NCBI GenBank assembly: GCA_033853695.1
Contig: JAWOLH010000023.1
Location: 22,215-86,214 of the forward strand
Length of the DNA stretch: 64,000 nt
DNA from: Gemmatimonadales bacterium
GTDB lineage: Bacteria; Gemmatimonadota; Gemmatimonadetes; Gemmatimonadales; GWC2-71-9
Direction of reading: 5' to 3'
In this document: one piece after another, positions 5,106-63,964 of the stretch
Layout: each line of letters begins with the position of its first letter
Numbering within the stretch: position 1 is the stretch's first letter
The notes under the pieces: generated by a model
The model's database searches: none
What the model saw: only the letters and a program-made list of their open reading frames with translations
Told to the model about the DNA's origin: nothing
Program-made: the position numbers and the translations under genes

Positions 5106-5961
5106 CGTGCACCGCCTGGAACACCGCGTCGCGCTGGGATTGCGGCAGCGAAGGACCCCAGGGGTCATCGCTGGCGTCCGGCGACAGCACGCCTTCGGCG
5201 ACCATCGCCCACAGCATTCGCTGGATGTACCCGTCCATCGGGGGAATGAACGTCTGCTGGGAGAACCGATCGAGGACGTTCGAAAGCTGCAGGAAGTCGC
5301 CGCCGGCCCCGGCGGCATGTGCGCGCAGTAACGCACACTGCAGGTCGGTCAGGGCCGCCCCCATCCCGACGAGCGCGCACTGGCCCCCGAGCATCAGCGA
5401 GTAGCCGAGGAACCGATCCTCGCCGGTGATCACCAGTTTGCCCGGATGCTCCCGCACCAGGGCGACGATGCGCTGAAACGTCATGACGGAATCGAGGGTT
5501 GCCACCTTGATGCCGATCACCTCCGGCAGCGCGAGAATCGCGTGCAGTGCGGCATCGCCGTACGGCACCCCGCCGGCGGCCTCATAGAGATAGAACGCGA
5601 TCACCGGGAGCTCCGCCCCGAGCGCCGTGTGCCACCCGGCCGGATCCTTGGCCTGTGGAAAGGCGAGGAGCGCATCGGCACCGCCCGCCTTCGCCTGCTT
5701 GGCCATCTCGAGGCTCGAGGCCCCCGCGATCACCAGGCGGTTGGGCAACGCGGCGCGCCACGTCTGCAGCACGATGCGGCGCTCGTCCACGGAGAGGTGG
5801 GTACCGCGGCCGGTATGCGCCCACACAGCGACGCCGGCAATATCCTGCGTCGCCATCCAGCGGGCATACACGTGCTGTGCGTCGGCGGCGAGCGTCTTTC
5901 CCCGGAACGGGACCGGCACCGCCGGCACGAGCCCGCCCTCGAGTCGCCGCGCGATCGTCAT
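5083..5961 (-). CDS. Dihydrodipicolinate synthase (class I aldolase) family protein
   Basis: GLVPAVPVPF, AHTGRG, GADALL, FYLY, VIGIKVA (Schiff-base Lys) and ITGED motifs. Confidence 0.85.
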   Translation of the reverse strand: MTIARRLEGGLVPAVPVPFRGKTLAADAQHVYARWMATQDIAGVAVWAHTGRGTHLSVDERRIVLQTWRAALPNRLVIAGASSLEMAKQAKAGGADALLAFPQAKDPAGWHTALGAELPVIAFYLYEAAGGVPYGDAALHAILALPEVIGIKVATLDSVMTFQRIVALVREHPGKLVITGEDRFLGYSLMLGGQCALVGMGAALTDLQCALLRAHAAGAGGDFLQLSNVLDRFSQQTFIPPMDGYIQRMLWAMVAEGVLSPDASDDPWGPSLPQSQRDAVFQAVHDARAARR

Positions 5962-56266: not shown

Positions 56267-58144
56267 ATGCTCATTCTGCTCACCGTCACTTCGTTGGCGT
56301 TCCAGCAGTCCGTCGCCGACACGTCCCCGTTCCGCGCGCTTCCGCTTCCTGCCGCCAATCGCGTGCGCTCGAGCTCGGGGGCGCCCGGGCCGGACTACTG
56401 GCAACAGGAAGCGAGCTACACGATCCGCGCGACCCTGGATACCGGGCCGAGTGTGATCACGGGCACGGAGACGATTCACTACGTGAATCACTCTCCTGAC
56501 GTGCTCGGGTTCGTCTGGATCCAGATCGAGCAGAACATCTTCGCCAAGAACAGCGTCACCTATCAGCTCAACCAGCCGCCGCTGCATTTCGCGGGGGGGG
56601 CGGTTTTCGATTTCACCGGCAAGGGCTTCATCGGCGGGATCACGATCGATCACTTCATGATCGGACCGAAAGAGCTGGCGCGTACCGAGTACGGGACCAT
56701 GATGCGCGTCGATCTCCCGGCGCCGCTCGCGCCCCGCGGCATGGTCGATTTCCACGTCGCCTGGCACTTCCCGGTGCCGCCGTATGGCGGCGGCCGCATG
56801 GGCCGCGTCGGCAACCGCCTGTACGAGATCGGCCAATGGTATCCGCGTCTCGTCGTCTACGACGACGTGAACGGGTGGAACCCCCTGCCCTACATCGGCG
56901 CGGGCGAGTTCTACCTCGAGTACGGCAACTACGATGTCACCCTCACGCTGCCGGCGGGCTATCTCGTCGCCGCGACGGGGACCGTCCAGAACCCCCTCGC
57001 CGTCTGGTCGCCGGCGATGCGCCGGCGTCTGGTGCAGGCGAAGACGGCGAGCGAGCGCGTACAGATCGTCACCAAGGACGAAGCGGCGGCCAACGGTGCC
57101 CGCGCAACAGCGGGCACGAAGGTCTGGCACTTCGCGGCGTCCACCGTGCGCGACTTCGCTTGGGCCGCGTCGCCCGATTTCCGCTGGGACGCCAGCACCT
57201 GGAACGGGATCCAGATCAACACGTTCTACCGGCCCACGGCGGCGCCGTGGGAAGAAGCGAACCGCATGGCGCGGTTTACGATTCAGCATTTCAGCGAGAC
57301 CTGGGGCATGTATCCCTGGCCCCACGCCACCACCGTCGAAGGGTTGATCGAGGGGATGGAGTACCCGATGCTCACCTTCGTCCCGTCGATCGAGAAGCGC
57401 GAGGACCAATTCTGGGTGCTGATGCACGAGTTCGGGCATCAGTGGTTCCCGATGACCGTCGGCTCTGATGAGCGGCGCTATCCCTGGATGGACGAAGGGT
57501 TCAACACGTTCATCGATTACGGGGCGGCGGAGGGCTACTTCAAAGGCACCGCGTACGGCGACACCGTGCGGCGCGAGCTGCTGACCGACTTTCAGGTGTC
57601 GGCCAAGCCGGGTGAGGAACAGCCACTCATCACCAAACCCGTCGAGCAGCGCGACCTCGGCTGGGGCGCCTACCAGAAGCCGGCACTGATGCTCACCGTG
57701 CTGCGCGACCAGGTATTGGGACGTGAGACGTTCGAGCGCGCGATGCGCGAGTACGTGCGCCGTTGGCGCTTCAAGCATCCGCAGCCGGCGGACTTCTTCC
57801 GCACCATCGCGAACGTGAGCGGCCACGATCTCGACTGGTTCTGGCGCGAGTGGATCTACACCACGGCCCGGCTCGACCAGGCGGTCGATTCGGTCCGCGC
57901 GGTGGGAACCGATTCGACCTATGTCTTCCTCGCCAACCGGGGCCAGATGGTGCTGCCCGTGACGCTCGAACTGCGCTACGGGGACGGGTCGACCGAGACT
58001 CGCACGCTGCCCATCGAGATGTGGAACCTGGGTGACCGCTTCACCGCCCGGCTCGCGACGGCGAAGCCGGTGGTGGGTGTCGTCATCGATCCGGCGGCGG
58101 TGTTGCCGGATGTGAATCGGGGGAACAACAGCTGGAACAAATAA
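56267..58144 (+). CDS. M1 family metallopeptidase (secreted)
   Basis: GAPGPDYWQQ, GMEYP, HEFGHQWFP..WMDEGFNT and YQKPA; AGGAG RBS upstream of ATG 56267. Confidence 0.93.
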   Translation: MLILLTVTSLAFQQSVADTSPFRALPLPAANRVRSSSGAPGPDYWQQEASYTIRATLDTGPSVITGTETIHYVNHSPDVLGFVWIQIEQNIFAKNSVTYQLNQPPLHFAGGAVFDFTGKGFIGGITIDHFMIGPKELARTEYGTMMRVDLPAPLAPRGMVDFHVAWHFPVPPYGGGRMGRVGNRLYEIGQWYPRLVVYDDVNGWNPLPYIGAGEFYLEYGNYDVTLTLPAGYLVAATGTVQNPLAVWSPAMRRRLVQAKTASERVQIVTKDEAAANGARATAGTKVWHFAASTVRDFAWAASPDFRWDASTWNGIQINTFYRPTAAPWEEANRMARFTIQHFSETWGMYPWPHATTVEGLIEGMEYPMLTFVPSIEKREDQFWVLMHEFGHQWFPMTVGSDERRYPWMDEGFNTFIDYGAAEGYFKGTAYGDTVRRELLTDFQVSAKPGEEQPLITKPVEQRDLGWGAYQKPALMLTVLRDQVLGRETFERAMREYVRRWRFKHPQPADFFRTIANVSGHDLDWFWREWIYTTARLDQAVDSVRAVGTDSTYVFLANRGQMVLPVTLELRYGDGSTETRTLPIEMWNLGDRFTARLATAKPVVGVVIDPAAVLPDVNRGNNSWNK

Positions 58145-58149
58145 TCGAC

Positions 58150-58240
58150 ATTCGTCAGGGAAGGCGTCGCGAAGAGCCGTCAGGAGAATACGTGGTCTCT
58201 CGACGCCGGCTCTTGACGCTTCGTCTCGACGATTCTCTCA
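58150..58240. repeat. Palindromic ~13-nt-periodic intergenic repeat, copy 4
   Basis: CGTCAGGGAAGG-CGTCGCGAAGAGC-CGTCAGGAGAATA-CGTG then CTCTCGACGCCGG-CTCTTGACGCTTC-GTCTCGACGATTC. Confidence 0.7.
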
Positions 58241-59812
58241 TTGCGGTTCCGTCGGCAGCCCCAACGCCTCCCACAGCGTCCAGCCGCCGATCAACGCCCG
58301 CGCCTGGGGCCATCCCGCGCGCTGTAACGATCGCGCCACCCGGGCGCTTGTCGCTTCGTTGCTTCAGGCGCAGTACGCGACCAGCCACGCATTCCGGGGC
58401 AGCGCCAGCTCCGCGGCGCGCAGCGCGGCGTCGTCCGGCGGAATGCGAATCGCCCCCGCGGCCTTCACTGCACTCTCGACCCACGCCCCGTCCTTTCGTG
58501 CATCGAGGAGGACGACGGGTTCCCCTCTAGCCTGGAGCGCCCGCAGCTCGTCGAGTGTGATACGCTCCCCCGTCGCTGCCGCCGAACCGCTCCCGGAAGA
58601 GTCGACCGACGCGGGCACAGCGCCAGCCACCCGCGCCGGCGGCTTCGGTCCGATGAACATCAGCGCACCACCGTGGATCACGACCGACAGCAGCACGACG
58701 AGCGCCGCGTAAGGAAACAGCGCGTTGGCTCCCGGCACCCCCGCGAAGATCGGCAACAAGACATAGAGCAGCGCCGAGAGGCCGCGCGGTCCGTACCACA
58801 CGATGAGATGCCGGCTCTTTGCGTCCAGCCCGCGGCGCGGCAGCACGACGGCGAGGGCGAGCGTGCGGCCGAACAGCGCGACCAGCGAGAACAACGCGCT
58901 GCGCCAGCTCACGGCATCGAACGCCGTCCACATCGACGACGAACCGAACGCCACGAACGTGAGCAGCAGGAACATTTCCGCTGTCGCCTGGCCGTAATCG
59001 ACAAAGCAGTCGCACAGCTCGGCGTCGAATGCCGCCACGGTGAGTCCGGCGGCGAACGCCGCGAGCAGGCCGCTGCCGTGTATCGCCTCCGCCGCCGCGT
59101 ACGCGGCGAACGCGACGCCCAGGGCGTAGATCGACTCGTAGTCGCGCCGCACCCCGGTCCGGCGGCGGATGCCTTCGAGCAGCGCCACGCCGGTGAACCC
59201 GACGAGGGCGCCCACCCCCGGTCCCAGCACGACGAGATTGACCGCCAGCCGCCCCCACCCGGTGCTCGATCCCACCGTCGCACCGCTCTGGATCGCCATC
59301 GCCACCAGCACCAACGGGAGCAACACGATGTCGTTCAGGCCGCTCTCGAGGCGCAGCGCCTGCCGGGCGCTCGTGGGCACTCCTTCGCGCCTGAGCAGTC
59401 CCCGCATCAACACCGGGTCGGTCGAGGAGAGCGCGGCGCCGAGGATGACGGCGAGCGCGGGCGGCAGGCCGAGCAGCCCCCAGGCTGCACATCCCGTCAG
59501 CGCGGCGGCGAGCAGCGTCCCCGGCCCCAGCACCAGCGCCGCGAGTCGCGCCTGCCCTCGCAGGTCGCGCCAGGTGACGCCGACCGCGTCCATGAACAGC
59601 ACGAGGATCAGGCTGATCGTGCTGATCGTCTCCAGCACCGGGGACTCGAGACCCGTGTCGACGAGCCCTAACCCGTAAGGCCCGAGCACCGCACCGAGGA
59701 CGAGAAATAGCGCGACCTGCGGGAAGCGGGCGCGCTCGACGAACCCCGACAGCAGCGCGGCCACCATGATGACCACGCCCACGAGCGCGAGCGTGGAGAC
59801 GAACGGGGTCAC
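58238..59812 (-). CDS. CPA1 cation:proton antiporter fused to a rhodanese-like domain; probable selenoprotein (in-frame TGA at 58366-58364)
   Basis: Antiporter motifs LFMDA, LSSTDPV, ESGLND and GPRGL. C-terminal LLDAR..AAGAIRIP..LVAYCA-TGA continues in frame as SNEATSARVARSLQRAGWPQARALIGGWTLWEALGLPTEPQ-stop. Confidence 0.85.
58326..58363 (-). promoter_or_regulatory. Putative bacterial SECIS element
   Basis: mRNA after UGA: AGCAACGAAGCGACAA-GCGCC-CGGGU-GGCGC-GA-UCGUU. 5-bp upper stem with G-containing loop starting 22 nt after UGA, plus a lower stem (GCGA/UCGU or AACGA/UCGUU). Confidence 0.65.
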
Positions 59813-60831
59813 CGCTCTTCGGGAATGACGGTAATGCGGCGCCGCTCTCCGCGCCGCAGCACGGTGAGCGTCACCGCGAGGCCGATCCGGTCGGCGAGCA
59901 GCAGGCGATGCAGATCGTCGACGCCCGACACCGGCTCCTCGCCGAGCGCCACGATGATGTCGCCCGACACGAGCTCCCCGCGCTGAGCCGGTGACTCCGG
60001 CTCGACCGATTGCACCAGCACACCGGTGCCCGAGACGATGCCGTGACGCCGCGCCGACGCCGCGCTGAGGGTGATCTGCTGACCGGACACCCCGATAAAG
60101 GCACGGCGGATCCGGCCATCCTTGAGGAGTGCGCTCGCGACGACCTGGGCGGTGTTGACGCCGACCGCGAAGCACAGCCCCTGAGCCGGTAGAATGACGG
60201 CGGTATTCACCCCGACGACTTCGCCCCGGCTGTTCACGAGCGGTCCGCCGGAGTTTCCGGGGTTCAACGCGGCGTCGGTCTGAATCACGTCCTCGATCCG
60301 TCGTCCCGTACTGGAGCGCCAGGTGCGGCCCAGCGCACTCACCACGCCCGCCGTCACGGAGCTCTGGAATCCGTATGGGTTGCCGATGGCGATGACGAGC
60401 TGGCCGACGCGGAGCCGCCCCGAGTCGCCGAGCGGAGCGACGGGGAGATCCGATCCCGCGATGCGCAGCGCCGCGATGTCGGTATCGGGATCGTCTCCCA
60501 CAACCTGCGCGTCGAGTCGCCGTCCATCCGCGAGGGTCACACCGACGCGCCTCGCGCCGTGGACGACGTGGCTATTGGTGAGCACGAAGCCGTCCGGCGT
60601 GAATACGAATCCCGAGCCGCCACCGCCGCGCTCCTCCCGCCGGCCGGAACGAGCGCGACCGCCGGTTTCGACAGCGACAACCGCGGGACCGACCAGCTCG
60701 GCGGCGCGCACGACCGCCCGAGAATACGCATCGAGCAGCGCGTCGTCGGTGGCTTCCGCCGTGGCCGGTTCGCGGGACTCCGCCGGGCGAGCACCGTCGC
60801 CGGCGGCGAGCACGAGCAGCGGACGGGTCAT
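59809..60831 (-). CDS. HtrA/DegQ-like trypsin protease with PDZ domain (no evident signal peptide)
   Basis: GSGFVFTPDGFVLTNSHVV, DIAAL, IQTDAALNPGNSGGPL and PDZ ESPAQRGELVSGD; GTGA overlap with the antiporter start. Confidence 0.92.
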   Translation of the reverse strand: MTRPLLVLAAGDGARPAESREPATAEATDDALLDAYSRAVVRAAELVGPAVVAVETGGRARSGRREERGGGGSGFVFTPDGFVLTNSHVVHGARRVGVTLADGRRLDAQVVGDDPDTDIAALRIAGSDLPVAPLGDSGRLRVGQLVIAIGNPYGFQSSVTAGVVSALGRTWRSSTGRRIEDVIQTDAALNPGNSGGPLVNSRGEVVGVNTAVILPAQGLCFAVGVNTAQVVASALLKDGRIRRAFIGVSGQQITLSAASARRHGIVSGTGVLVQSVEPESPAQRGELVSGDIIVALGEEPVSGVDDLHRLLLADRIGLAVTLTVLRRGERRRITVIPEER

Positions 60832-60874
60832 GTCACCGCAAACACGCGAGCGCCGGACCCGGTTCCCTGAGGTG

Positions 60875-61105
60875 ACCTCGCTCGCACCGGATACGGCGGG
60901 TGCGCCACGGTGTACGACGGCGCCGGATTCTCGCCAGCTCGTCGAGGACGACCGCCACCGCACGCTCGAGCTGGGGATCGTGCCCCTGAATCACCAGCTG
61001 CGGCGTCATCTCCACCTGGATGTCTGGCGGCACCCCGACATTCTCGGCGTCCCATTCACCCGACGGGCTGAACAACGCGATGCGCGGCGCGTGACGGAGC
61101 CGCGA
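60875..61105 (-). pseudogene. Remnant C-terminus of a tricorn-like (S41) protease
   Basis: GSVT/APRIALFSPSGEWDAENVGVPPDIQVEMTPQLVIQGHDPQLERAVAVVLDELA/NPAPSY..HPPYP, with frame breaks near 61092 and 60930 and no upstream body. Confidence 0.7.
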
Positions 61106-61194
61106 ACGGAGCACGACGCAGCACGAGGCCTCCCGAGAATACGAACGGGGCCAAGCTACGGGGCCCCGTCCGATCACGCGAGCAGGGCGTGCGG

Positions 61195-62601
61195 CTAGTG
61201 GATACCACCCCCCACGAACTGCCTGACCAGGTCGCCGATCACGGCCTTCGCGTCGCCGAAGAGCATCCAGGTGTTGTCCTGTACGTACAGCTCGTTGTCG
61301 ATCCCTGCGAATCCCGGGTTCTTGCTGCGCTTGATCGCCAGGACTGTCTTGGCTTTATCGGCATCGATGATCGGCATGCCGTAGATCGGCGAGTCCTTGG
61401 CGTAGCGGGCCGCGGGATTCACGACGTCGTTGGCACCAATGACGAGTGCAACGTCGCACTGCGGCATTTCGGGATTGATCTCGTCCATCTCCGCCAACGC
61501 CGAGTAGGGAATGTTCGCCTCGGCGAGGAGGACGTTCATGTGCCCGGGCATCCGCCCGGCCACGGGGTGGATGGCGAACTTGACGGTGACCCCGCGCTTG
61601 GTGAGCTGATCGTAGAGCTCCTGTACTTTGTGCTGCGCCTGCGCGACGGCCATGCCGTATCCCGGGATGATGACCACGAGGTTCGCCTGCTCGAGCAGTT
61701 GCGCCGCGCCTTCGGGCGTCTCCTGCTTCCACACCTTTTGCTCGCCGCTCACCTTCGTCTTCTGCACGGTCCCGAAGGCACCGAACAGGACGTTTGTGAA
61801 CGAGCGGTTCATCGCCCGGCACATGATGATCGAGAGGATGAGGCCGCTCGAGCCGTCGAGCGCGCCGGCCGTGACCAGCAGCTTGCTGTTGAGGACGAAC
61901 CCCATCGCCACCGCGGAGAGCCCGGCATACGAATTCAGGATCGAGATCACGGTCGGCATGTCCGCGCCGCCGATCGGAACGATGAGCAGGATTCCGAAGA
62001 GCAGCGCCAGCCCCACGACGCCGAGAAACGCGTTGGACGCCCATGCCGCCGTCGGCTGGAGGACCACGAGGACACCCAAGACGATGGCTCCGGCCAGCAC
62101 CCCGAGGTTGACGACATTCTGGCCGGGATAGGTGACCGGGCGCTGCGGGATCCAGCGCACCTCCTGGAGCTTGCCCGTCGCCATGAGGCTGCCGGTGAAG
62201 GTGAGGAAGCCCAGGATCACCTCGGCCACGAGGGCGCCCATGCGGAAGGTCGTGATCTGGTCCGGGCTCTCGATCAGCCAGAGGTGGTATTCCGCCACCC
62301 CGACGAGCCCAGCCGCCAGTCCACCAAAGGAGTGCGACAACGCCGTCCGCTGTGGCACGGCCGTCAGCGGCACGAGCGAGAGCGGCACACCGAGCACGAA
62401 TCCGGCGCCGATGGCGAGCAGGATCCAGCCGTGATGGACGATCTGCGGCTGGATCCACGTCGCGCCGACCGCGACCGTCATGCCCACGACGCCCGCGATC
62501 ACACCGCGACGGGCGGTCTTCGGATCGTTCATCCAGTGCAGGGAGAAGATGAACAGGGCCGTCGCGGCGATGGCCGCGAACTGCATGAGGGAGGCCATCA
62601 T
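61195..62601 (-). CDS. pntB: NAD(P) transhydrogenase subunit beta
   Basis: HSFGGLAA, IGGADMP, NSYAG, MCRAMNRS, PGYGMAVAQAQ, IHPVAGRMPGHMNVLLAEA and GANDVVNPAA. Confidence 0.97.
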   Translation of the reverse strand: MMASLMQFAAIAATALFIFSLHWMNDPKTARRGVIAGVVGMTVAVGATWIQPQIVHHGWILLAIGAGFVLGVPLSLVPLTAVPQRTALSHSFGGLAAGLVGVAEYHLWLIESPDQITTFRMGALVAEVILGFLTFTGSLMATGKLQEVRWIPQRPVTYPGQNVVNLGVLAGAIVLGVLVVLQPTAAWASNAFLGVVGLALLFGILLIVPIGGADMPTVISILNSYAGLSAVAMGFVLNSKLLVTAGALDGSSGLILSIIMCRAMNRSFTNVLFGAFGTVQKTKVSGEQKVWKQETPEGAAQLLEQANLVVIIPGYGMAVAQAQHKVQELYDQLTKRGVTVKFAIHPVAGRMPGHMNVLLAEANIPYSALAEMDEINPEMPQCDVALVIGANDVVNPAARYAKDSPIYGMPIIDADKAKTVLAIKRSKNPGFAGIDNELYVQDNTWMLFGDAKAVIGDLVRQFVGGGIH

Positions 62602-62876
62602 TGTTTCTTGAACATCTTGAGCATGCGGTCCGTGATCAGGAAGCCGCTGACGATGTTCGTCATCGAGGCGAACAGGGCGACGGCTCCGAGGATGCGAATC
62701 ACCGTTGGGTAATCGGAGCCGGTCACAGTGAGCGAGCCGACCACCGCGATGGCCGAGATGGCGTTGGTCAACGACATCAGCGGCGTGTAGAGCAGCCGCG
62801 AGACCCGTCGAATCACGCCCAGCCCGATGAACGTGGCGAGCACGAACACGAACAACATCGACCAGTAGTCGCTCAT
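62598..62876 (-). CDS. pntAB: NAD(P) transhydrogenase subunit alpha, membrane part (alpha2)
   Basis: LLYTPLMSLTNAISAI and NIVSGFLITDRMLKMF. Confidence 0.93.
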   Translation of the reverse strand: MSDYWSMLFVFVLATFIGLGVIRRVSRLLYTPLMSLTNAISAIAVVGSLTVTGSDYPTVIRILGAVALFASMTNIVSGFLITDRMLKMFKKQ

Positions 62877-63964
62877 GACCGGAGCACCTTTCCGTCGTGG
62901 GTGACGCACGTCGCCTTGGTGATCTCGTCCGCCATGTCCGGCTCCAGCTTACCGTCTTTCACGACATGGCTCAGGAAAGTGGCGATGTTGCGGGAGTACA
63001 TCTGACTCGAGTGCAGCGGCAGCGTCGCGGGCAGGTTGACCGGCCCGATGATCGTGACCCCTTCCTGTGTCACCGTGGTCCCGGCCTGCGTCAGCTCGCA
63101 GTTACCGCCGGACTCGGCCGCTAGATCTACGATGACCGAGCCAGGGCGCATCCCACGTACCGCGGTCCGGGTCAAGAGGATCGGGGCGCGCTTTCCCGGA
63201 ATCGCAGCGGTCGTGATGACGACATCGACGTCCTTCACGCTCGCGGCGAGGAAATCCAGCTCGCGCTGGTGCTGGTCTGCCGAGAGCTCCTTGGCGTAGC
63301 CACCGGCGCCTTCCGCCTGCACCTGCTCGGCCATCACGAGAAACTTGGCCCCGAGGCTCTCCACCTGCTCTTTCACCGCCGGCCGCACGTCGAACGCCGA
63401 GACGATCGCGCCGAGCCGACGGGCGGTGGCGATCGCCTGCAGCCCTGCGACGCCGGCTCCCAGCACCAGCACGCGCGCCGGCGACAGTGTCCCGGCGGCC
63501 GTCACGAGCATCGGAAAGAACTTGGGAGTGGTCTCGGCGGCGAGGAGTACGGCCTTGTAACCTGCGGCGGTTGCCTGGGAGGAGAGGACGTCCATCGATT
63601 GGGCCCGGGTGATGCGCGGCAACAGCTCGAGGCTGAACGCCGTGACGCGACGCTGGGCCAGCTGCTGCAGCAGATCCGCGCTCGTCGCCGCCTGGAGCTG
63701 GCCGATCAGCGCCGCGCGCTCGCGCAGCTTCCCGACCTCAACGCCACTCGGCTTCTGCACCTTGCAGACGACGTCCGCGGACCACGCGTCGCCCGGCTTG
63801 GCGCCGGCCGTGCGGTAGGCGTCGTCTGGGAAGCCGGCGGCGCTCCCGGCTCCCGGCTCCACCAGAACCTCGTGACCGTCCTTCACCAATTTGGCGACCG
63901 TGTCGGGCACGAGCGCAACGCGGCGCTCGCCGGCAACGGTCTCTTTCGGGACCCCGAACTTCAT
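62873..63964 (-). CDS. pntAA: NAD(P) transhydrogenase subunit alpha, NAD(H)-binding part (alpha1)
   Basis: VPKETVAGERRVAL, PRITRAQSMDVLSSQ, GAGVAGLQAIATA, GGYAKE and DLAAESGGNCE. Confidence 0.95.
   Translation of the reverse strand: MKFGVPKETVAGERRVALVPDTVAKLVKDGHEVLVEPGAGSAAGFPDDAYRTAGAKPGDAWSADVVCKVQKPSGVEVGKLRERAALIGQLQAATSADLLQQLAQRRVTAFSLELLPRITRAQSMDVLSSQATAAGYKAVLLAAETTPKFFPMLVTAAGTLSPARVLVLGAGVAGLQAIATARRLGAIVSAFDVRPAVKEQVESLGAKFLVMAEQVQAEGAGGYAKELSADQHQRELDFLAASVKDVDVVITTAAIPGKRAPILLTRTAVRGMRPGSVIVDLAAESGGNCELTQAGTTVTQEGVTIIGPVNLPATLPLHSSQMYSRNIATFLSHVVKDGKLEPDMADEITKATCVTHDGKVLRS

Follow-up and report, generated by a model that had tools for sequence, protein, structure and literature searches.

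The rhodanese-like proteins with a C-x-U motif (Cys, any residue, selenocysteine) were first predicted to be selenoproteins by Zhang and Gladyshev (2005), according to a 2026 review, which lists them as form 3 and ties them to NF041203, TKB26178.1 and that earlier study; a 2022 review lists them as COG0607 form 2. The NCBIfam family NF041203 (rhodanese_LYCAU, “rhodanese-related (seleno)protein”) consists of single-domain proteins of about 126 residues. Among membrane proteins, the antiporters PaNhaP and MjNhaP1 (PDB 4cz8, 4cza, 4czb) are archaeal and have neither a rhodanese domain nor selenocysteine (Sec or U). Here we analysed a stretch of 64,000 nucleotides of contig JAWOLH010000023.1 from a Gemmatimonadales bacterium (assembly GCA_033853695.1; genome G000, 3.69 Mb, 98.8% complete), hereafter the window, in which one minus-strand gene is predicted to encode an NhaP-type antiporter and a C-x-U rhodanese-like domain as a single selenoprotein. 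The rhodanese-like module shares the fold and the ..YCAU.. motif with NF041203 but is the C-terminal domain of a 524-residue antiporter. The membrane part has in common with PaNhaP and MjNhaP1 the Na_H_Exchanger domain and the TD and ES..ND motifs (TM-score 0.56 by query and 0.68 by target length), at about 20% identity.

Two other described arrangements come close. In the DedA(VTT)-rhodanese fusions with a YCxCPNE motif, the same rhodanese subtype is found at the C-terminus of a membrane protein, but the membrane partner is VTT/DedA and not an antiporter of the CPA1 family. Escherichia coli YgaP is likewise a membrane-held rhodanese, and the PDB titles 5hbo and 5hbl, which report an S-nitrosylated and an S-sulfhydrated catalytic Cys, show that such domains undergo thiol modification. 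YgaP differs, however, by its canonical single-Cys loop and its simple helical anchor; it is not a transporter and has no Sec.

With translation table 11, the open reading frame of the antiporter (58364-60175, minus strand) ends with ...WLVAYCA followed by TGA. Reading TGA as U, we obtained from 58238-59812 a translation of 524 residues in which U is codon 483, and the 41 codons beyond it (SNEATSARVARSLQRAGWPQARALIGGWTLWEALGLPTEPQ) lead to a second TGA at 58240-58238. The orthologues begin at the same position, with M/L/V-TPF.... The features of the gene are the following:

Positions 58238-59812, minus strand: whole gene, predicted NhaP-type antiporter/rhodanese selenoprotein of 524 codons, translated with TGA as U; the range includes the terminal TGA stop (58238-58240).
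Positions 58658-59764, minus strand: antiporter domain, Pfam Na_H_Exchanger (PF00999), residues 17-385, 157.4 bits against a cut-off of 26.2.
Positions 59417-59422 and 59330-59335, minus strand: TD motif (residues 131-132) and ND motif (residues 160-161).
Positions 58571-58654, minus strand: linker, residues 387-414, with a predicted local distance difference test score (pLDDT) below 50 in the full-length model; its length and sequence vary among orthologues.
Positions 58265-58558, minus strand: rhodanese-like domain (PF00581), residues 419-516, spanning the TGA, 37.1 bits against a cut-off of 22.2.
Positions 58370-58372, minus strand: codon of Cys481 (TGC), two residues ahead of Sec, invariant in 80/80 rows of alignment A3 and 16/16 rows of alignment A1.
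Positions 58364-58366, minus strand: in-frame TGA, predicted Sec483, TGA in 78 of 80 related loci and Cys in two.

When the window protein was read through the TGA, the Pfam Rhodanese match covered profile positions 1-101 of 102, and the domain is thus complete only with read-through. The predicted product is one polypeptide of 524 residues, in which a flexible stretch of about 30 residues links a CPA1 antiporter to a rhodanese-like domain at the C-terminus. Without recoding, the rhodanese fold would be missing its final helices and strands.

Scanning species-representative genomes, we recovered 523 stretches encoding a relative, the best 80 of which were kept. As the original prediction had expected, homologues show either TGA or Cys at the column of codon 483, with conserved sequence beyond: TGA in 78 loci and Cys in two (L096, Gammaproteobacteria, and L101, Manganitrophaceae). 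The TGA loci belong to Gemmatimonadota, Acidobacteriota, Binatota/“delta”, Thermodesulfobacteriota, Myxococcota, Chloroflexota, Armatimonadota and Eisenbacteria; the 80 loci comprise some from metagenome-assembled genomes labelled Gemmatimonas sp. A single TGA was found at the same column in all ten published full-length orthologues (set of 60 relatives; 55-72% identity), followed by 41-52 conserved codons. In a phylum sample of 201 evenly drawn genomes, we recovered an orthologue at E<=1e-60 in 20; 16 matches reached the domain, one of them from the unpublished genome G102, and all 16 had the TGA. Four genomes of this sample (G086, G158, G165 and G213) gave antiporter-only matches, covering query residues 4 to about 400 with no stop. 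At the level of sequence comparison, chance is excluded as the source of the conserved TGA column. An error of sequencing or assembly, or a nonsense mutation that arose recently in this assembly alone, is an a priori possibility for any metagenome-derived genome, which is all that speaks for it. The presence of the same TGA in 78 of 80 other genomes already refutes it, and contigs from three runs of one study showed no difference at the site, though these may be the source samples and are hence not independent; we consider the probability of such an error to be next to nil. The search for sequencing runs covering the locus listed none of RNA.

The closest proteins were taken as the best 120 clusters among the 5.8 billion of a protein cluster database. 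Of these, 104, that of the window included, end exactly at ..[YF]C[ATS], and are called “cation:proton antiporter” or “NhaP” where the source gives a name; the suspicion that standard annotation truncates the protein was thus correct. The remaining 16 are full length and have Cys at the U column, with motifs including YCACPNE, FCACPND and YCTCPNE. All 17 distinct Cys forms have Cys at this column and read CxC there, so that the TGA does stand, as proposed, in the active-site loop of the rhodanese where a CxC motif has its second Cys. In an unrooted FastTree phylogeny of 79 Sec and 17 Cys forms, the Cys forms were interspersed among the Sec forms, with at least five state changes, at least two of them forced by well-supported branches; one Cys pair branched inside a Gemmatimonadia Sec clade with 100% local support. 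The residue that follows the column (codon 484, nucleotides 58361-58363) is Pro in 17/17 distinct Cys forms (C-x-C-P); in the Sec-form loci it is Pro in 20/78, the others having K, N, S, H, A, R, Q, M, V, I, T or L. One Cys form of 678 residues (P0040) has two tandem rhodanese domains after the antiporter, with the motifs FCTCPND and ICSCPDD.

Downstream of the TGA, the identity at the three codon positions was 0.83/0.84/0.58 at codons +12 to +39, compared with 0.72/0.78/0.53 in the 30 codons before it. In the 80 domain sequences T488, S489, R491 and G510 are invariant, C481 and U483 are conserved and E486 is nearly invariant. The downstream codons are therefore conserved, and they keep coding periodicity, so that translation is predicted to go on past the TGA. 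In one older metagenome-assembled genome (L071, about 5440-5580), the frame past ...QQAGWP turns into unrelated sequence over the C-terminal third of the domain, by a frameshift, a rearrangement or an assembly fault. If the TGA were a true stop, the product would be a 482-residue antiporter with a half-rhodanese remnant, and the 41 codons would be decaying or separately used; near-cognate read-through without Sec is a variant of this explanation. The explanation agrees with the gene calls of every source, which close the protein at that codon, in 104 of the 120 closest clusters, but it is contradicted by the periodicity and the invariant residues beyond the TGA across phyla, by the Pfam domain, complete only with read-through, and by the Cys forms, which read straight through.

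Past the TGA we found a stem-loop that resembles a bacterial selenocysteine insertion sequence (SECIS):

Positions 58327-58354, minus strand: SECIS-like stem-loop, fold of -12.9 kcal/mol, supported by pairing, compensatory changes and synonymous constraint.
Positions 58347-58343 paired with 58337-58333, minus strand: conserved upper stem, enclosing the apical loop CGGGU (58342-58338).
Positions 58354-58351 paired with 58330-58327, minus strand: lower stem seen in the window.

The hairpin reads GCGCC-CGGGU-GGCGC in the window and GCGCC-CGKGY-GGCGC in the family, starts 16 nucleotides past the UGA, inside the coding sequence, and has an invariant G at loop positions 2 and 4. Its upper stem of 5 bp is paired in 100% of the cells of 76 distinct sequences, with none broken. 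G-C is changed to A-U in four sequences and C-G to U-A in three, wobble changes occur in six, and two of the pairs show compensatory changes. These changes (L085, L099, L107 and L110; L088, L108 and L066) turn SARVA into STRVV or SVRVT, that is, Ala-Arg-Val-Ala becomes Thr-Arg-Val-Val or Val-Arg-Val-Thr, in step. The locus thereby provides a clean example of an RNA-structure constraint altering a protein, since the A-to-T and A-to-V replacements come in pairs that preserve the SECIS stem. The codon entropies of codons +6 to +10 (S A R V A) are 0.10, 0, 0.97, 0 and 0 bits, each lowest in the gene, compared with means of 1.06-1.80 bits for the same residues at other conserved columns. Such frozen synonymous sites exactly in the hairpin, and compensatory changes that keep its pairing, again argue against a true stop.

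The published model of bacterial SECIS elements (PMC13188914, legend of Figure 2) specifies a loop of 3-9 nucleotides with a G in its first two positions, an upper stem of 4-16 bp, 16-37 nucleotides from the UGA to the loop and a minimum free energy of at most -7.5 kcal/mol. The window hairpin fits the four constraints of the model, with a loop of 5 nucleotides, a G at position 2, a stem of 5 bp, a spacing of 21 nucleotides and -12.9 kcal/mol, and the search for a SECIS 3' of the TGA thus yielded a hairpin with covariation and published dimensions. A scan of 58050-58330 for promoters and terminators found none.

The four components of the Sec machinery that the original prediction proposed to look for are all encoded in the same genome, each above its curated cut-off: selA (542.5 bits; cut-off 268), selB (305.9 bits; cut-off 242), selD (399.8 bits; cut-off 125) and tRNA-Sec (77.8 bits against an Rfam gathering score of 47), which ARAGORN calls tRNA-SeC with anticodon TCA. 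This full machinery is a further argument against a true stop, which we regard as very improbable. An alternative genetic code with TGA as Trp or Gly was rejected, the upstream gene and the end of the gene itself using TGA as stop and the homologues having Cys at the column. The TGA column, the machinery and the hairpin all agree with a hidden selenoprotein of the predicted length, about 524 residues, and UGA codon 483 is very probably recoded as Sec. The genome contains a second likely selenoprotein gene outside the window (L135, contig C27, 57122-60685), for an FdhA-like molybdopterin oxidoreductase, with an in-frame TGA in the classic ...SCNRTUHAPSV... context and, by eye, a hairpin GUCGUC-GGUCU-GGCGAC 12 nucleotides downstream of it.

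The TD and ND motifs mark electroneutral CPA1 antiporters. T131, D132, N160 and D161 are invariant in the 16 rows of alignment A1 (alignment A3 has 80 rows), and the closest protein by sequence in phmmer was PaNhaP (4cza), with the TDP and ES..ND motifs aligned. With Foldseek, the best matches of the membrane part were PaNhaP and MjNhaP1, followed by SLC9C1, SOS1, NHE1 and KefC. Two broken helices were present in the full-length model, at residues 128-133 and 339-345, as the NhaP fold expects. The NCBIfam equivalogs of K+/H+ antiporters (NF003716 and others) were not reached, with 133.7 bits against a cut-off of 355, and we thus assigned no ion specificity.

The AlphaFold2 model of the C-terminal domain had a pLDDT of 90.6. 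Foldseek returned 96 PDB matches at E<=0.001, and all those listed have the rhodanese fold, including TSTD1, GlpE, YgaP, a persulfide dioxygenase-rhodanese and persulfide reductases. The best NCBIfam match was NF041203 (83.9 bits, profile positions 17-125 of 126), and the window motif VAYCAU fits its (L)YCAU, with Sec two residues after Cys; there were also weak matches to the ChrE chromate-resistance rhodanese. The canonical sulfurtransferase loop has six residues, C-x-x-G-x-R, followed by S or T, and this form is seen in 6mxv and in two ordinary rhodaneses of the window's genome (L133 and L134, CHHGTRS and CQSGSRS). The loop of the window domain, C-A-U-S-N-E-A-T-S, is two residues longer than the latter two.

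We recovered the same module in other settings. A relative genome (G032, contig C29, L041 832-1818, plus strand) encodes a DedA/VTT membrane protein whose fused CxU rhodanese (LYCSUPNEATS) contains an in-frame TGA, followed by the same hairpin, which makes a second fusion of the Sec module to a membrane protein; the DedA-rhodanese relative invoked in the original prediction thus exists and in this genome is itself a Sec form. It scored 83.7 bits with NF041203, below the cut-off. Stand-alone CxU rhodanese genes with TGA were found at L034 1468-1860 (minus strand, genome G011, contig C48) and L048 1480-1935 (minus strand, G026, contig C122), both with the same hairpin past the TGA and both below the NF041203 cut-off. 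The L034 domain is 83% identical to that of the window, with an identical hairpin, and no antiporter part was matched in its genome; it has the appearance of a domain that either left the fusion or gave rise to it. The searches run in the genome of the window found no DedA fusion and no stand-alone NF041203 member. The search with the domain against longer proteins returned nearly exclusively truncated antiporter fusions, plus a 277-residue Cys form (P0122). As the coding sequence of the domain itself contains the SECIS, the Sec module can be transferred whole to different membrane proteins (NhaP, DedA).

Several results weigh against a Sec-recoded antiporter with a rhodanese domain. The full-length AlphaFold2 model, made from the 16-row alignment, had a moderate pLDDT of 69.7 and served for the helix layout and the Foldseek family only. 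The hairpin energy is ordinary compared with shuffles in this GC-rich DNA (z = -0.15 for 67 nucleotides and -1.55 for 30), which also favours a true stop; covariation occurs in just two of the five pairs (7 cells), and the statistic “pairs changed on both sides” was matched by 79 of 500 shuffles. An Rfam scan of 58100-58500 at E<=10 detected no SECIS family, with two chance-level matches (mir-995 and PyrR210). The canonical catalytic loop motif is absent from the domain, Gly and Arg being missing and a nearly invariant Glu present instead, and the NF041203 score is below the cut-off of 115 bits (80.5 bits on DNA), a value reached by none of the 61 relatives searched. Finally, the alignments disagree on the catalytic position: ungapped phmmer alignments to both 6mxv domains put U483 on the catalytic Cys, and hhalign against the two canonical rhodaneses of the genome puts Cys481 there, with U483 at +2.

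The energy being unexceptional, the support for the hairpin comes from the covariation and the synonymous-site constraint, and the diversity of bacterial SECIS elements leaves the Rfam result with little weight. The secondary structure of the AlphaFold2 model (strand to Y480, loop 481-486, helix from 487) agrees with a catalytic Cys481 and U483 at +2. Either Cys481 or Sec483 may occupy the catalytic position; in both cases the two residues are invariant and lie in the loop. We consider with good confidence that a Sec-recoded antiporter-rhodanese, perhaps acting as a redox or sulfane-sulfur switch, is the best explanation of the locus as a whole.

The C-terminus of NhaP proteins is cytoplasmic, and KefC is gated by glutathione and its electrophile adducts. 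In the mechanism that we propose, SelB with Sec-tRNA(Sec) would bind the hairpin past the UGA, and Sec would be inserted at codon 483. Sec483 and Cys481, in the active-site loop, would probably form a redox-active pair, able to make a reversible selenenylsulfide or to carry a sulfane or selenium adduct. Homology with NhaP would place the tethered rhodanese domain at a cytoplasmic C-terminus, where it could act as a sensor, tuning K+/Na+:H+ exchange, and hence cytoplasmic pH, in response to oxidants, electrophiles and reactive sulfur or selenium species, much as the glutathione-gated KefC works. A sensor is favoured because the putative redox pair would stand in a cytoplasmic domain at the place where other CPA antiporters carry regulatory domains. 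The structural neighbours of the membrane part KefC, SOS1 and SLC9C1 likewise have a cytoplasmic regulatory domain at the C-terminus of a CPA membrane domain, but those domains are unrelated to the present one (KTN/RCK, cyclic-nucleotide-binding or auto-inhibitory, not rhodanese) and have no Sec, so that the likeness to KefC is an analogy in the way of working and implies no membership. The low-confidence linker that parts the domain from the antiporter, the fusion of the same CxU module to a DedA membrane protein and the lack of a widely shared neighbouring gene also favour a regulatory role. By analogy, the domain is perhaps regulatory rather than purely catalytic, a point on which we stand close to undecided; that Cys481-x-Sec483 forms a selenium-based redox/persulfide switch gating a K+/Na+:H+ antiporter, as a KefC-like stress valve, is suggested more tentatively.

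A selenoprotein with a working enzyme domain is the main alternative, if a doubtful one: a membrane-tethered sulfur or selenium transferase, or a chalcogen/metalloid oxyanion reductase of the Acr2/Cdc25 type, whose chemistry would be merely co-located with the antiporter or coupled to it through pH. The fold is that of rhodanese sulfurtransferases (TSTD1, GlpE, YgaP and persulfide enzymes in Foldseek), Sec in selenoenzymes usually stands in for a catalytic Cys according to the reviews, the stand-alone forms L034 and L048 imply that the domain can act without the antiporter, and the weak ChrE matches point in the same direction. This role is, however, less easily reconciled with a loop that does not have the Gly/Arg pattern of CHHGTRS and CQSGSRS, with an acidic loop residue that would suit anionic substrates such as thiosulfate poorly, and with the absence of a conserved partner enzyme beside the gene. 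The conservation of C481 and U483 with the nearly invariant E486 could alternatively correspond to a soft-metal or metalloid site (Hg, Cu, As or Se species), for sensing or handing over, in a metal-stress protein. We find this improbable, as the surroundings of the gene contain no conserved metal-resistance genes and CPA1 antiporters carry Na+/K+/H+ and are not known to carry soft metals.

The genes upstream of the antiporter (59809-63964, minus strand) are, in order, pntAA, a small open reading frame, pntB and an HtrA-like protease, then the antiporter:

Positions 59809-59812, minus strand: GTGA overlap of the antiporter GTG start (59812-59810) with the TGA stop (59811-59809) of the HtrA-like gene, from the open reading frame list; sequence GAAGAGCGGTGACCCC.
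Positions 59809-60963, minus strand: HtrA-like serine protease (Pfam Trypsin_2 and PDZ), upstream neighbour, context only.
Positions 61195-62601, minus strand: pntB, NAD(P) transhydrogenase beta, Pfam PNTB 567 bits.

Across the 80 loci, pntB was found upstream of the antiporter gene in 16 (directly upstream in close relatives), an M1 peptidase in ten and HtrA in two. Judging from gene order, the HtrA-like gene thus seems to have been inserted, in this lineage, between pnt genes and the antiporter. All-against-all clustering of the flanking open reading frames of these loci gave no neighbour common to more than 16 of them; the four top clusters were the antiporter gene itself and its overlapping frames. 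With each neighbour in at most 16 of 80 loci, the synteny is lineage-specific, and we built no function on it; the protein appears to be a self-contained unit.

The original prediction knew of no characterised selenoprotein of this kind. As far as the fusion is concerned, this appears to stand: the literature searched, including passages of PMC13188914, PMC9312934 and PMC1088965, holds no description of an antiporter-rhodanese fusion, although supplementary tables of recent large selenoproteome surveys might list one. The words “antiporter” and “exchanger” occur in neither review, and “CPA1”, “PF00999” and “DedA” do not occur in the 2026 review, the sole one searched for them. NCBIfam release 20 has no model for the fusion, and the members named by NCBI are truncated. 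The novelty does not extend to the CxU rhodanese, already listed as a predicted family (NF041203). The locus thus appears to represent a known Sec module in a widespread, undescribed antiporter fusion that is systematically truncated in annotation.

With 104 of the 120 closest entries stopping at the Sec codon, annotation cuts the whole family short and overlooks its dependence on selenium, in abundant soil lineages. The finding extends the short list of transporter-linked selenoproteins by an ion antiporter and shows repeated use of a Sec module, along with its in-frame SECIS, on different membrane proteins. If the domain gates transport, it would couple the redox state, or the status of reactive sulfur or selenium, to the pH of the cytoplasm and the balance of cations. 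Should the switch exist, ion and pH homeostasis would for the first time be shown to be regulated by a selenoprotein, one that current annotation hides and that would occur in Gemmatimonadota, Acidobacteriota, Binatota, Chloroflexota and other phyla of the soil.

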